From Methanocaldococcus sp. 16A (lineage in GTDB: Archaea; AGJL01; Methanococci; Methanococcales; Methanocaldococcaceae): a stretch of 64,000 nucleotides of DNA. Positions 7,871 through 40,862 of the stretch are shown here, in pieces. A program made the position numbers and the translations under genes. Under the pieces are notes generated by a model. It did not search any database. It saw only the letters and a program-made list of their open reading frames with translations, and was not told the DNA's origin. Each line of letters opens with the position of its first letter. Positions within the stretch are counted from its first letter, which is position 1. The stretch lies in assembly GCA_049860595.1 (NCBI GenBank), contig CP187551.1; one strand, 5' to 3'.

Positions 7871-9178
7871 ATGTTTTTGGGCAATGATACAGTGGAGATA
7901 AAGGATGGAAGATTCTTTATAGATGGTTATGATGCTATAGAATTGGCTGAGAAGTTTGGGACTCCTTTATATGTAATGTCAGAGGAGCAAATAAAGATAA
8001 ACTATAACAAATACATTGAAGCTTTCAAAAGATGGGAAGAAGAGACAGGAAAGGAGTTTATTGTTGCCTATGCATATAAAGCAAATGCAAACTTGGCTAT
8101 TACAAGATTGTTAGCTAAGCTTGGTTGTGGGGCAGATGTTGTTAGTGGAGGAGAGCTATATATAGCAAAGTTGTCAAATGTACCTTCAGAGAAAATTGTT
8201 TTCAATGGAAACTGTAAAACAAAAGAAGAGATTATAATGGGAATTGAAGCAAATATAAGGGCTTTCAATGTTGATAGCATAAGTGAGTTAATTTTAATTA
8301 ATGAGACAGCAAAAGAGCTTGGAGAAGTGGCAAATGTAGCTTTCAGAATAAACCCGAACGTTAATCCAAAAACACATCCAAAGATTTCAACAGGTTTAAA
8401 GAAGAATAAGTTTGGTTTAGATGTTGAAAGTGGTTTGGCTTTGAAGGCAATAAAAATGGCTTTAGAGATGGAGAATGTAAATGTTGTTGGAGTTCATTGC
8501 CATATTGGTTCTCAATTAACAGATGTAAGTCCATTTGTTGAAGAAACTAGAAAAGTTATGGATTTTGTTGTTGAGTTGAAGAAAGAAGGTATTGAGATTG
8601 AGGATGTTAACTTAGGAGGAGGTTTAGGAATCCCTTATGAAAAAGATAAAGAAATCCCTACCCAAAAAGATTTGGCTGATGCAATAATAAACACAATGTT
8701 GGAATATAAAGATAAAGTAGAGATGCCAAACCTCATCTTAGAGCCTGGTAGAAGTTTGGTAGCTACTGCTGGTTATTTGTTGGGGAAGGTTCATCATGTA
8801 AAAGAAACACCAGTAACAAAATGGGTTATGATTGATGCAGGAATGAACGATATGATGAGACCTGCTATGTATGAGGCATATCATCACATAATAAACTGCA
8901 AAGTTAAGGATGAAAAAGAAAAGGTAAGTGTTGCTGGAGGGCTTTGTGAGAGTAGTGATGTCTTTGGTAGAGATAGAGAACTTGACAAAGTAGAGGTTGG
9001 AGATATATTGGCTATATTTGATGTTGGTGCATATGGAATAAGTATGGCTAACAACTATAACGCAAGAGGAAGACCAAGAATGGTTTTAACAAGTAAGAAG
9101 GGAGTGTTCTTAATTAGAGAAAAAGAGACATACGCTGATTTAATTGCTAAGGATATAATTCCTCCTCATTTGTTGTAA
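7871..9178 (+). CDS. lysA: Diaminopimelate decarboxylase
   Basis: YAYKAN PLP lysine, HCHIGSQ, NLGGG, EPGRSLV and CESSD motifs. ATG follows an AGGTGA RBS. Confidence 0.97.
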   Translation: MFLGNDTVEIKDGRFFIDGYDAIELAEKFGTPLYVMSEEQIKINYNKYIEAFKRWEEETGKEFIVAYAYKANANLAITRLLAKLGCGADVVSGGELYIAKLSNVPSEKIVFNGNCKTKEEIIMGIEANIRAFNVDSISELILINETAKELGEVANVAFRINPNVNPKTHPKISTGLKKNKFGLDVESGLALKAIKMALEMENVNVVGVHCHIGSQLTDVSPFVEETRKVMDFVVELKKEGIEIEDVNLGGGLGIPYEKDKEIPTQKDLADAIINTMLEYKDKVEMPNLILEPGRSLVATAGYLLGKVHHVKETPVTKWVMIDAGMNDMMRPAMYEAYHHIINCKVKDEKEKVSVAGGLCESSDVFGRDRELDKVEVGDILAIFDVGAYGISMANNYNARGRPRMVLTSKKGVFLIREKETYADLIAKDIIPPHLL

Positions 9179-37828: not shown

Positions 37829-38557
37829 TTATAACAAACCTAATCTCTCAGCGACAATTCTATATTTTGCAATAACATCTCCTAAATCTTTTCTAAATAC
37901 ATCCTTATCTAACACATCTCTTGTTTCTTTGTCCCACAATCTCATAGTATCTGGGCTTATTTCATCTGCAACCACTAAATTGCCATCTTTATCTCTACCA
38001 ATTTCAATTTTGAAGTCAACTAATATTATGCCTTTCTCATCAAATAATTTCTTTAAAGCCTCATTAACTTTTAGAGCAATTTCTTTAATCTTGTTTAATT
38101 CCTCTCTTGTAGCTAAACCTAAAGCTACGGCAATGTCTTCATTTAACATTGGGTCTCCATACTCATCATTTTTGTAATCAAATTGAACAATTGGAAATGG
38201 CAATTCTTTTCCTTCTTCAAAAGGATATCTTCTGCATAAGCTTCCTGCAGCTATATTTCTAACTATAACTTCTATTGGTACAATCTCAACCTTTTTAGCT
38301 ACCATGTATCTTGGTTCTATATACTTTATGTAGTGGGTCTCTATCCCATTTTCTTCCAAAACTTCAAATAATTTTGATGAAATTAGGGCGTTTAAATACC
38401 CTTTATTCTCTTTAACATCATGCTTAGCTCCATTTCCAGCTGTTATATCATCTCTAAACTCAATTAAAACTTTATCCTCATCAATTTCATAGATAGACTT
38501 TGCTTTTCCACTGTATAGTGGCTGCTTTTTTAATATTTCTTCCAATTTTATCTCCAT
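37829..38557 (-). CDS. purC: SAICAR synthetase
   Basis: GKAKSIY, PIEVIVRN, VDFKIE and ADEISPDTMRLWD motifs. Confidence 0.97.
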   Translation of the reverse strand: MEIKLEEILKKQPLYSGKAKSIYEIDEDKVLIEFRDDITAGNGAKHDVKENKGYLNALISSKLFEVLEENGIETHYIKYIEPRYMVAKKVEIVPIEVIVRNIAAGSLCRRYPFEEGKELPFPIVQFDYKNDEYGDPMLNEDIAVALGLATREELNKIKEIALKVNEALKKLFDEKGIILVDFKIEIGRDKDGNLVVADEISPDTMRLWDKETRDVLDKDVFRKDLGDVIAKYRIVAERLGLL

Positions 38558-38696
38558 ACTTTCCCACCTAAAGAAGTTTATTGAGTTATAATCTTAAATT
38601 TAATTACTTTTATGGCAAAATAGTTTAACTTAAATGTAATATAAATGTAATATAAAAATTTTAGCTTAATAGGAACAAAAAAGATATTAAAGATTT

Positions 38697-38732
38697 TCGA
38701 TGTGCCTCCCTTAAACGGGTTCGGCACATCGA
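38697..38732 (-). promoter_or_regulatory. Archaeal SECIS element in the selD 3' UTR
   Basis: mRNA UCGAUGUGCC-GAA-CCC-GUUUAA-GGG-A-GGCACAUCGA: 10-bp stem, GAA/A internal loop, 3 GC pairs. Confidence 0.93.
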
Positions 38733-38786
38733 CTAAAGACGTTTTTACATAGAATCTTTAATGGAGATGAACTGCCCAGCACCGAG

Positions 38787-39836
38787 TTAGACTTCAACTA
38801 TTTCAACATCTTTACTTAAAATTGCCTTTCCTTTACATTTTTTCTTTACTTTTCCAACCTCAAAAGCATAACATTTAGCTTTCTCCAACTCATCAATTAA
38901 ATCATCTTTATACTCTTTTTTTGCTGATATTAATAATCCTCCTGCAGTTTCTGCTCCATAACCTTCCAATAATGCATGACCAAATAATTTACTCAACTCA
39001 GGAGTCTTTTTTATGCATGGTAAAGTATGGATTTCTATTAAAACATTGCTGTTCTTAGCCATTTCATTTGAATGCCCTAATAGACCAAATCCAGTAATAT
39101 CTGTTAAGGCATTTGCTATTTTATCTCCAACTCTTTCTTCTGCTTTTCTTAAAGCCATTAATCCATATCTATTTGATGTAGTCATTATTTCTATTGCTTT
39201 ATCTATAATGTATTTTTCCTCCTCATAAGTAATGTCGATTAAATTTTTGAATTCCTCAGGAATTCTTGATAACGCCATCGCTGTTTGAGTACCTAATGGT
39301 TTTGTTAATATTAAAATATCTCCTTCCTTAGCTCCACTTTTTGTTAAAACTTCTTCTTCTCTCCCAACGCCAGTAACTGCACCTCCAATCAAAGGCCATG
39401 GGTTTAGTATAGTATGCCCACCAACTATTGAGGTTTTATTTTCTCTACAAAAGTCTTGAAATCCTTTTAACATTTCCCTAACTATTTGTATTGGAAGTTT
39501 TTCAGGAATTCCAACAATTGCTAAAACACCTACTATATCTAATAATCCCATAGCGTAGATATCGCTTGTTGAATTACAGGCAGCTATCTTTCCTTGTATA
39601 TATGGATTATCAACAATCGGTGTGAAAACATCTACTGTCTTTGCAATAACTAATCCATTTCTTTTAATTACTGATGCATCATCTCCTAATCCAACCAAAA
39701 TATTTTTGTCTGATAAATCCTCTTCATTAACTATTCCTTTAACTAAATATTCTAACTCGGTGCTGGGCAGTTTACAAGCTCATCCATGTAATTTAACCAA
39801 TTCAGTTAATTTTATTTTTTCATCTGCTTTTTCCAT
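38787..39836 (-). CDS. selD: Selenide, water dikinase (selenophosphate synthetase), selenoprotein with Sec19
   Basis: ATG at 39836 gives MEKADEKIKLTELVKLHG-U-ACKLP (in-frame TGA 39780-39782). Also GDDA, TVDVFTP, GGHT, TDITGFG and ETAGGLL; SECIS downstream. Confidence 0.95.
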
Positions 39837-40151
39837 ATTTTCACCAGTGAAAGTTATAAATTTATAAACATAACCAATAACCAATTCTATTAATAAATTT
39901 GATGAGCTATAAAATACTACCAATTAGAATTTCTAATAACCTTTGAGTTATTAAGGTTTTATATTCTTCAAAATACCATAAAGATGTTAAGAAATAGCTC
40001 ACAATTGCATTTGCAAAAAGCTTTGTCATCATTGGAAAGGATTTACCAAGCATTTACAAAAATCATGTGAGAAAGAGAATTATAAAAATCCAAAGACACT
40101 TTTATATATTTTGAAAGCTTATTATCAAGGTATTTTATGTTTAGATAGAGG

Positions 40152-40862
40152 GACGATGTCAAGATAAGACGATGTCAAGATAAGGAGAGAAAGAAGTTAT
40201 AGAAAGAGGAGAAAGATACGAGCCAGCTAATGACGGTTGAGAATTTAGTATTACTTGGGAATCGATTATAGAAAGATTTAGTTCTTCGTTTGAGTAGGGA
40301 AAAGAAACTTTCGACACAATTTCTTAAACCGAATCGAACTCTTTCGAATTTTAGTCCTAATCTTTGCAGTGCCCACGGATACCATTTGCCACCATCGACT
40401 AAAATCTTTGGTTTATTCGAGCAAAATTTTAATATATTTTTTACGAATAAGATTGTATCGAGGTAGCATCTTGTTTTAGAGACATAGATACCTAAACATT
40501 CTTTAGAACCCACATCGATAGCAGACCATACATAAATAGTTTCATTTCCAATCTTTAGTTTAGTTTCATCGATTGCTATTAGGTTTCTTGTCTTTCTTTC
40601 AGGCTCGTTTAAAATCTCCTTAATCTTGTGATAATATGTTCTAACCGATTCATGACTTATACTTTCAAATTGAGAAAGAAACAAACTAACCTTTCTTAAC
40701 GATAATCCTAAATAATACAAAATTCCAGCTAAAATTTTAATCTCTATCGACTTCTTATTCCTTTTAACTATCTTCTTAATCCCTTCCTTTAACATTTCTA
40801 TCGTAAGTTTCATATCTTCCTTTATTTACACATATTTATTTAATCTTTATCTTGACAGTCTC
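40152..40862 (-). mobile_element. IS6-family insertion sequence with one tandemly duplicated TIR
   Basis: GACGATGTCAAGATAA x2 (40152-40183) ... TTATCTTGACAGTCTC; flanking direct repeat AGATAGAGG. Confidence 0.92.
40175..40813 (-). CDS. IS6-family transposase (intact)
   Basis: IDETK, WSAID, VDGG and NCVESFF DDE motifs. Confidence 0.92.

Follow-up and report, generated by a model that had tools for sequence, protein, structure and literature searches.

In bacteria, the SECIS (selenocysteine insertion sequence) is a hairpin in the coding sequence (CDS) immediately 3′ of the UGA codon and is bound by SelB. We address here how a SECIS that lies in an untranslated region (UTR), as in archaea, can make a ribosome as far as 1.5 kb away decode UGA as selenocysteine (Sec). 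SelB of archaea reportedly does not bind this element, and in the available text of the same two papers no archaeal SECIS-binding protein is established (PMC8211752; PMC11881835). The closest described system is fdhA1, whose 5′-UTR SECIS carries flanks complementary to the open reading frame (ORF); according to the available text, these flanks are conserved in Methanococcales and longer in the thermophilic genera, and with the duplex formed, 43 nt would separate the UGA from the SECIS on its 3′ side (PMC11881835; Peiter et al. 2025, RNA Biol). We analysed a 64,000-nt stretch of Methanocaldococcus sp. 16A (GenBank assembly GCA_049860595.1, contig CP187551.1; hereafter the window) that contains selD, the gene for selenide, water dikinase. 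A sequence-only reading of the window had noticed that the end of the selD mRNA could pair perfectly over 22 nt with the coding sequence just behind the Sec UGA of the same mRNA, and had proposed that this long-range helix brings the 3′-UTR SECIS to the Sec codon. On comparative sequence evidence, the 22-bp complementarity is a selected, conserved and co-evolving pairing. The helix probably docks the SECIS near the Sec UGA, and selD would be one of several genes in Methanococcales with such antisense "address arms" beside a SECIS.

The two arms form an inverted repeat of 22 nt, 100% complementary and separated by 959 nt (Table 1). In the selD mRNA, the 5′ arm begins at the eighth nucleotide after the UGA, leaving a spacer of 7 nt, and a spacer of 37 nt lies between the 3′ arm and the SECIS. 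Repeat search, translation and folding reproduced the coordinates and distances that the sequence-only reading had given for the arms, the UGA and the SECIS. Its additional suggestion, that the UTR stretch CAUCUCCAU extends the pairing to GAUGA, over the codon, or to AUGGA just before it, did not hold up, as this stretch differs already in the closest relative (97% identical) and is unrelated in the others. The 22-mer has no third copy anywhere in the 1.62-Mb genome, ranks fifth-longest among the perfect inverted repeats within 3 kb, and has a GC content of 55%, compared with 30% genome-wide. Apart from it, the unique GC-rich long-range repeats on the same list are probably the processing stems of the two rRNA operons and belong otherwise to further selenoprotein genes. 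As a null, 130 nt of CDS was scored without gaps against the ORF's own 3′ flank in 819 ORFs of at least 250 aa (pair +1, G-U −0.5, mismatch −2). The 95th and 99th percentiles were 12 and 14, and selD scored 22, which bears out the earlier judgement that a match at this spot is very unlikely by chance. Only two null ORFs scored at least 17, namely hdrA itself and a non-selenoprotein ORF at 18.5, whose AT-rich imperfect 26-mer was judged a chance match. The arm stands on the 5′ side of the SECIS only, no complement to selD of at least 13 nt being found within 70 nt 3′ of the SECIS. In predicted folds of the 1191-nt selD mRNA, the helix was part of the minimum free energy structure at all three temperatures tried; its mean pair probability was 0.95 at 37 °C, 0.94 at 65 °C and 0.87 at 85 °C, and at 85 °C the helix and the SECIS supplied most of the predicted stability.

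Conservation was assessed in a survey of 40 genomes of the order, with genera coded g1 (Methanocaldococcus), g2, g3 (Methanothermococcus), g4 and g5. The sequence-only reading had called for an alignment of selD with its 3′-UTR and a search for compensatory changes, and this check came out positive. All 18 g1 and g5 loci with a complete 3′ end (16 g1 and 2 g5; the g1 locus L011, at a contig end, was dropped) keep 17–22 perfect pairs, with the 5′ arm starting at +9 to +13, counted from the U of the UGA. Insertions that separate the 3′ arm from the stop codon, by 24 nt in L009 and by 7–8 nt in L012 and L013, have left the arm in place. The selD arms fall into seven distinct haplotypes, mostly through synonymous codon changes, each exactly matched by the UTR arm of the same genome. 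In an alignment of the 18 mRNAs (A1), the 19 alignable helix pairs were 96.7% paired; 6 of the 19 had changes on both sides, one had three Watson-Crick types, and there were zero broken cells among the 16 interior pairs. When the 3′ partner was slid by 1–3 columns, the paired fraction over the 19 helix and 13 SECIS pairs was 31–39%, compared with 95.8% unslid. Judged by eye, the helix calls for eight or more separate double substitutions, and almost all of the pair changes are full Watson-Crick double changes, with one G-U among the 19 pairs.

The SECIS to which this arm is joined is of the archaeal kind. It lies 54 nt from the selD stop, in the 3′-UTR of an mRNA with an in-frame UGA, and consists of a 10-bp basal helix, a GAA/A asymmetric loop, three G-C pairs (CCC/GGG) and a 6-nt apical loop. 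According to the available text of PMC9622424 and PMC11881835, an archaeal SECIS has two helices with an asymmetric internal loop between them, in which GAA on the 5′ strand faces a single A. The selD element fits this description, and likewise has the 2–3 G-C pairs expected over that loop and, at the apex, a loop within the 4–8 nt of the non-conserved apical loop. In A1, its three C-G pairs are invariant or covarying, and the basal helix shows double changes at 8 of 10 pairs. The 349-aa product matched NCBIfam SelD NF010705 with 630 bits against a cut-off of 291. A selD match was present in 39 of the 40 genomes, and 38 of these 39 matches contain one in-frame TGA; the remaining match is a contig-end fragment that begins at residue 68. 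An Rfam search of positions 38000-40500 at a permissive threshold gave four sub-threshold matches at chance level and nothing on the arms or the SECIS. In two g2 genomes (L138 of G022 and L139 of G021), a SECIS-like hairpin with TAA for GAA and a long extra basal helix was seen 3′ of selD; the motif scan did not call either as a SECIS.

The arrangement is shared by other selenoprotein genes. Elements were detected by our own motif scans and a pattern search, from which unusual shapes may escape, and this applies in particular to the calls of "no SECIS" in G003, G015, g2 and g3. The source genome yielded seven SECIS elements, and at four of them a perfect arm of 18–26 nt lies 12–37 nt 5′ of the SECIS and targets same-strand CDS at +10 to +40 after the TGA. 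Apart from selD, the armed genes are hdrA, fwuB and a second fwdB paralogue, so that the complementarity just 3′ of the UGA, which the sequence-only reading had suggested looking for in other archaeal selenoprotein mRNAs, is found in three of them. In the four armed genes, the UGA is 1.0–1.5 kb from the SECIS. The three elements that have no long arm include those of the HesB-like gene (UGA 181 nt from the SECIS) and of VhuD (237 and 390 nt), and the third (S6) is taken to serve vhuU. A perfect complementarity of 13 nt in vhuD (C1:1332335-1332347 / 1332478-1332490) joins +48, relative to the second Sec codon, to the stretch 34–46 nt before the SECIS; this may be the same device at short range, or chance.

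Among the relatives, counted as having an arm at a score of at least 15, hdrA carries its own arm in 7 of 15 g1, 2 of 2 g5, 8 of 10 g3, 0 of 1 g4 and 0 of 2 g2 loci. For fwuB, the corresponding counts are 9/13 in g1, 2/2 in g5, 1/1 in g4, 5/7 in g3 and 0/6 in g2, and the arm of the second fwdB paralogue is present at all six g1 and g5 loci and at none of nine g2 and g3 loci. Arms of hdrA and fwuB measure 15–29 nt in g1, g5 and most of g3, and 9–11 nt in g2, where four fwuB loci have a 10–11-nt match at the homologous +32/+33, located 11–12 nt after the stop and before a SECIS-like hairpin. In this genome, hdrA and fwdB also have Cys paralogues, which scored 10 and 11 and from which the arm is absent. 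In an alignment of 20 fwuB sequences from g1, g5, g4 and g3 (A3), the 19-pair helix was 93.4% paired, against 32–48% in slid controls, with double changes at five pairs, one of which had four Watson-Crick types. The distance from arm to SECIS is 12–23 nt in hdrA, fwuB and the second fwdB and 14–95 nt, mostly 17–40, in selD; the distance from arm to stop varies from 9 to 138 nt. Since the spacer to the SECIS is tight and the distance to the stop variable, arm and SECIS behave as one unit. Furthermore, the paired stretch of hdrA CDS shifts between genera, starting at +28, +32 or +38; the boundaries of the hdrA arm slide, and therefore the pairing, rather than a particular sequence, appears to be what is selected. 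We also observed that, in most genomes, AGAUGA (5′) and CUGAUG (3′) bracket the basal helix of the hdrA SECIS (C1:1331955-1332012; L031 ~2455-2515; homologues L036-L061). This bracket, which was not seen around the selD SECIS, resembles box C/box D, that is, a kink-turn bound by L7Ae-type proteins.

A second class of arm surfaced unexpectedly in the non-cognate control. Non-cognate arm/CDS pairs had a 95th percentile of 12, and the high tail of their distribution proved to be real pairing of hdrA 5′ regions with fwuB 3′-UTRs. The 60 nt preceding the fwuB-side SECIS consist of three abutting arms, two directed to fwuB and one to hdrA, whose target lies 7.2 kb upstream (Table 1). This hdrA arm (21–23 nt) is in the fwuB-side module of 9 of the 12 g1 genomes with both loci; the module lies elsewhere in the other three. 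In all, it is present in 13 of 13 g1 genomes that have both the hdrA locus and the module in the data, and in relatives it starts at +10 to +12. In G007, G014 and G016, the own arm or the own SECIS of hdrA is missing or decayed, and the hdrA arm of the module is retained. The hdrA of G014 (L035) is 99% identical; in its own SECIS, TAA has replaced GAA and the apical G-C pairs are gone, and the arm beside this SECIS has decayed to background. In the fwuB-side module of that genome, the hdrA arm is still perfect and compensates a synonymous change. This looks like natural redundancy between two SECIS elements.

The module is displaced from fwuB in G004, G003, G015 and G009 (Table 1). The copies share one build: an AT-rich lead, a TATA-like box 25–40 nt upstream, three arms, a 12–16-nt spacer, the SECIS and an oligo-T run. 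By eye, the TATA-like box would be the promoter of the module and the oligo-T run its terminator. Where the module follows fwuB, a conserved TATA-like "AAAAATATAAATATT" stands about 30–45 nt before the first arm in 9 of 10 g1 genomes, and for this reason that module, too, may be a small-RNA gene of its own. Both neighbouring genes of the G015 module are on the opposite strand, and the gene upstream of the G003 module is divergent; with neighbours so oriented, neither module can be the UTR of an upstream gene. The genomic neighbours of displaced modules, including the downstream genes, vary between genomes. The stand-alone modules of G015 and G003 lie apart from their targets and have arms of 16–23 nt complementary to them. 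Module arms track the targets of their own genome. For example, they compensate a synonymous change (G to A) in the hdrA of G014, two changes in the hdrA of G004 and a difference of three bases in the fwuB of G003; one change, in the fwuB of G014, is not compensated. A relaxed scan of 10–15 kb around hdrA and fwuB of G003 and G015 detected no further credible SECIS except those of vhuD/vhuU, with the limit that unusual shapes could escape it. The displaced modules are candidates for a trans-acting SECIS RNA. The chances appear evenly balanced that such modules of about 110–130 nt are guide-SECIS RNAs. Each would have a promoter and a terminator of its own and between one and three antisense address segments fused to a SECIS; by pairing with the CDS just behind a Sec UGA, it would deliver recoding in trans to mRNAs that have no SECIS. 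One of them would serve both hdrA and fwuB, and the selD 3′-UTR arm would be the cis form.

Table 1. Features of the selD locus, arms of other selenoprotein genes in the same genome, and arm-SECIS modules. Unprefixed positions are those of the window; offsets such as +10 are positions relative to the Sec codon.
Feature	Location	Strand	Description
selD CDS (selenide, water dikinase)	38787..39836	-	349 codons + stop, one in-frame TGA, translated with TGA=U
selD start codon ATG	39836-39834	-	
Sec codon UGA, selD codon 19	39780..39782	-	aligns with single in-frame TGA of selD homologues
5′ arm of long-range helix	39751..39772	-	CDS, codons 22-29 (K-L-P-S-T-E-L-E), +10 to +31 from U of UGA
selD stop codon TAA	38789-38787	-	
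3′ arm of long-range helix	38770..38791	-	last 2 nt of final codon, stop TAA, first 17 nt of 3′-UTR
Archaeal-type SECIS hairpin of selD	38697..38732	-	from fold and genome motif scan; 37 nt 3′ of 3′ arm
selD arm			22 bp at +10; same genome
hdrA arm			26 bp at +40 and, nested, 19 bp at +152; same genome
fwuB (formylmethanofuran dehydrogenase B, TIGR03129) arm			19 bp at +26; same genome
Second FwdB paralogue arm			18 bp at +32; same genome
fwuB-side SECIS	C1:1337690-1337785 (L031 ~8190-8286)		preceded by three abutting arms
fwuB-side module arms			13 nt to fwuB +109; 23 nt to hdrA +10..+32; 19 nt to fwuB +26
G004 module	L116/L104 14185-14280		3.9 kb beyond fwuB stop, 10.7 kb from hdrA UGA
G003 module	L115	-	complete assembly; 40 kb from fwuB, 880 kb from hdrA
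G015 module	L114 1491-1590		complete assembly; 440 kb from both hdrA and fwuB
G009 module	L113	-	different contig from hdrA

In the mechanism that we propose, the arm upstream of the SECIS would pair with the CDS shortly after the Sec UGA. Because the pairing is antiparallel, the SECIS would emerge from the UGA-proximal end of the helix. Together with any factor that it binds and with aSelB carrying Sec-tRNA(Sec), it would be placed at the mRNA entrance of the ribosome when the UGA enters the A site. A 3′-UTR SECIS about 1 kb away would in this way be turned into a bacterial-like local arrangement. Measured as 5′ offset plus spacer, the path from UGA to SECIS is 47 nt in selD, 38 nt in fwuB, 50 nt in the second fwdB, 59 nt for the own arm of hdrA and about 40 nt for hdrA through the module. 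Since these paths of 38–59 nt include the 43 nt of fdhA1, the arms can be read as address labels that would dock the SECIS at the mRNA entrance. They would act in cis from the 3′-UTR in selD, hdrA, fwuB and the second fwdB, in cis from the 5′-UTR in the published case of fdhA1, across 7–11 kb of gene cluster where the fwuB-side SECIS serves hdrA, and, in the case of free-standing arm-SECIS genes, probably in trans. We infer that the helix forms in vivo and raises the efficiency or fidelity of Sec insertion, and that each free-standing module has a transcript of its own, which acts in trans. Arm length also appears to be tuned to temperature, with growth at 37, 65 and 85 °C being what we take to hold for the genera: arms of 18–26 bp come to about −13 to −16 kcal/mol at 85 °C (Turner parameters, extrapolated), 21–22-bp g3 arms to −23 to −25 kcal/mol at 65 °C, and a 10-bp g2-type arm to −15 kcal/mol at 37 °C.

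Several observations weigh against this docking model or limit its reach. The selD helix is confined to g1 and g5: none of 16 selD loci in the other genera (1 g4, 9 g3 and 6 g2, leaving out L025, L027 and L140 with short flanks) reaches a score of 14, the maximum being an AT-rich 13. These loci have the same UGA-stop distance of about 990 nt and no helix, with the SECIS mostly within about 20 nt of the stop codon and at most 44 nt from it; the helix is therefore not generally required. In M. maripaludis reporters, adding the flanks to the 5′-UTR SECIS did not significantly change activity, and as mRNA fell about 3-fold, the calculated activity per mRNA rose only about 2-fold (available text of PMC11881835); an arm-free 3′-UTR SECIS works there at 520–679 nt, at mesophilic temperature (available text of PMC9622424). 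Because M. maripaludis works without arms and selD of the less thermophilic genera is armless, the arms would be at most an enhancer, apparently for high temperature and long distance. In shuffles of A1, the observed value was reached by 0 of 500 for four of five measures and by 445 of 500 for further pair types, statistics that overstate significance because the genomes are related. The near-absence of G-U pairs does not tell RNA selection from DNA-level copying, and the bona fide SECIS helix behaves alike. In addition, the module arms match the Cys paralogue of fwdB over 13–14 nt through homology, the energies at 85 °C are extrapolations, and every translating ribosome must melt the 5′ arm. 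Overall, the core idea of the sequence-only reading, a long-range helix linking the SECIS to the Sec codon, is well supported by the comparative evidence and is strengthened by the stand-alone modules, but does not stand as a general requirement.

The sequence-only reading had also expected the helix to pause the ribosome, and in its pure form, with the helix acting only as a roadblock that stalls the ribosome with the UGA in the A site, so that the slow aSelB/Sec-tRNA route could win over release factor, and nearness to the SECIS being incidental, we consider this explanation improbable. The position of the selD helix, at +9 to +13 in 18 of 18 loci, and that of the hdrA arm of the fwuB module, at +10 to +12, would suit it well, with the same spacing as frameshift stimulators, which sit 5–9 nt after their site (PMC8211752). 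However, the own arms of fwuB, the second fwdB and hdrA start at +26 to +40, beyond the leading edge of the ribosome and too distant to touch one that is decoding the UGA, so a pause cannot be general. A local hairpin would moreover do for stalling, yet the partner strand always lies 12–37 nt from a SECIS (up to 95 nt in selD relatives), and adjoins it even when that SECIS is 4–880 kb away. The same constant joining of every arm to a SECIS at a conserved short distance makes it unlikely, though less so than a mere roadblock, that the pairing is a regulatory antisense switch controlling mRNA stability or translation, in selD as an autoregulatory loop, and not decoding; such a switch might be an RNase target or a block that selenium status lifts. 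The roughly 3-fold drop of reporter mRNA in M. maripaludis when ORF-complementary flanks were present, for which the authors raise double-strand-specific RNases (available text of PMC11881835), speaks for such a switch, as does the likeness of the stand-alone modules to antisense small-RNA genes; feedback would also be plausible, as SelD supplies selenophosphate for its own synthesis. Nevertheless, it is the position of the UGA (codon 19, 121 or 196) that the arms track, whereas the usual sites of repressor action are the start codon and the ribosome-binding site. The target Sec genes of G003 and G015 have, by our scan, no other SECIS within 5–9 kb, so that the module looks needed for decoding and not merely modulatory. 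The arms may have a role in mRNA turnover or regulation.

Two further explanations bear on whether RNA pairing is involved at all. That the repeats are a DNA-level feature, serving recombination, inversion or gene conversion with no role in RNA pairing, is very improbable. The arms are exact reverse complements with almost no G-U, and an ORF of the IS transposase type lies about 340 nt upstream of the selD start, as such an origin might suggest; still, orientation is identical across the 18 loci, none of which is inverted, and an inversion would split selD after codon 29. Arms of 13–28 nt lie from 1 kb to 880 kb apart and on either DNA strand relative to their targets, but they always adjoin a SECIS and their polarity always permits pairing of sense-strand RNA, and the sliding of their boundaries along the hdrA CDS is as expected for selection on pairing and not on a site. 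Chance deserves next to no credence: at first sight, the 22-mer was a single pair in one genome, and this is all that speaks for it, against its uniqueness in the genome, a null maximum far below it and its conservation with compensatory changes in 18 genomes. We also considered circularisation of the mRNA into a 5′-3′ closed loop and rejected it, as the 5′ arms of hdrA and fwuB follow a UGA at codons 196 and 121 and not the 5′ end. Docking of the SECIS by address arms is the reading that we prefer.

Several other features of the window and the genome were recorded. The transposase-like ORF, identified by eye, occupies 40175-40813 (- strand) and encodes 212 aa; a 16-bp unit in two tandem copies lies at its end (40152-40183). 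Between it and selD, at 39966-40038 (- strand), 130–200 nt upstream of the selD start, a weak Rfam C/D-box match, below threshold at 26.8 bits (gathering score 60), includes a clear AUGAUGA box and could mark a C/D-box sRNA gene. Elsewhere in the genome, identical 21-bp GC-rich inverted repeats with arms 1580 nt apart (C1:387031/388632 and 790194/791795) are probably the 16S rRNA processing stems of two rRNA operons, and a 52-bp AT-rich inverted repeat with arms 2.3 kb apart (C1:80088/82474) probably marks the ends of a mobile element.

For hyperthermophilic methanogens, the arms offer a simple partial answer to the question of how a distant SECIS finds its codon: base-pairing segments that covary with their targets would address the SECIS to the UGA. 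The model predicts that one SECIS can serve two genes and that a SECIS can work from a separate RNA; our literature searches turned up neither. If confirmed, it would change the prediction of archaeal selenoproteins, because a Sec gene need not carry a SECIS, and it would provide a design rule for engineered selenoproteins, in which a guide arm takes the place of a SECIS inside the gene. Were the guide-SECIS interpretation true, the modules would constitute a programmable RNA-guided recoding system and would partly answer how the archaeal SECIS communicates with the ribosome.

The comparison with described recoding elements places the selD helix between several of them. In eukaryotes, a Sec redefinition element (SRE), reportedly described by Howard and colleagues in 2005, is a stem-loop a few nucleotides 3′ of some Sec UGA codons. 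Both systems thus combine a structure at a short spacer after the UGA (7 nt in selD) with a distant 3′-UTR SECIS; the SRE, in contrast, is a local hairpin independent of the SECIS, whereas here the SECIS-bearing UTR supplies one strand. In plant RNA viruses, luteovirus −1 frameshifting and tombusvirid readthrough need pairing with 3′-proximal sequence kilobases away. The common element is that sequence 3′ of the recoding site pairs with a distant 3′ element, but those pairings drive frameshifting or readthrough in viral genomes, without a SECIS, and we know of no comparable long-distance recoding pairing established for cellular selenoprotein mRNAs. Compared with the bacterial SECIS, the docked helix would begin a few nucleotides 3′ of the UGA with the SECIS just past the mRNA entrance, the same topology as in the reach of SelB to the A site (PMC8211752). 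The helix here is long-range or intermolecular, however, with its partner strand 959 nt away in selD and a SECIS of the archaeal GAA/A type; selD has no local ORF hairpin with a SelB-binding apical loop, and positions 38000-40500 gave no Rfam match at threshold.

The "antisense tethering" hypothesis holds, in the available text, that viral mRNAs tether host selenoprotein mRNAs and borrow their SECIS in trans (PMC11510084). It shares with our proposal an antisense match by the UGA that recruits a SECIS on another RNA; it concerns animal viruses, whereas here the organism itself encodes conserved, covarying arm-SECIS modules. Our literature search, in which older subscription papers and the supplements of PMC11881835 lay outside reach, found no earlier account of 3′-UTR complementarity in selD, hdrA or fwuB or of a natural trans SECIS, and reviews of 2021 and 2026 mention no such pairing. 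In the main text of the fdhA1 paper, "selD" and "hdrA" occur 0 times, and fwuB flanks, multi-target arms and stand-alone modules go unmentioned (PMC11881835). To judge from the available text of that paper, fdhA1 and the genes described here have in common a SECIS-adjacent sequence complementary to the ORF shortly 3′ of the Sec UGA, which puts the SECIS tens of nucleotides from the UGA. The arm-length trend (long in g1, g5 and most of g3, short in g2) also agrees with the trend in that text, with growth temperatures as we presume them to be. The difference lies in the layout, as the fdhA1 SECIS is in the 5′-UTR with short flanks on both sides (7 + 10 nt in M. maripaludis), whereas the arms here are single, in the 3′-UTR, 17–28 nt long and on the 5′ side only, closing loops of 1–1.4 kb (up to 11 kb). 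Collectively, the selD helix extends the published fdhA1-type flank pairing, and, should action in trans be shown for them, the multi-target arms and free-standing modules would be of a new kind.

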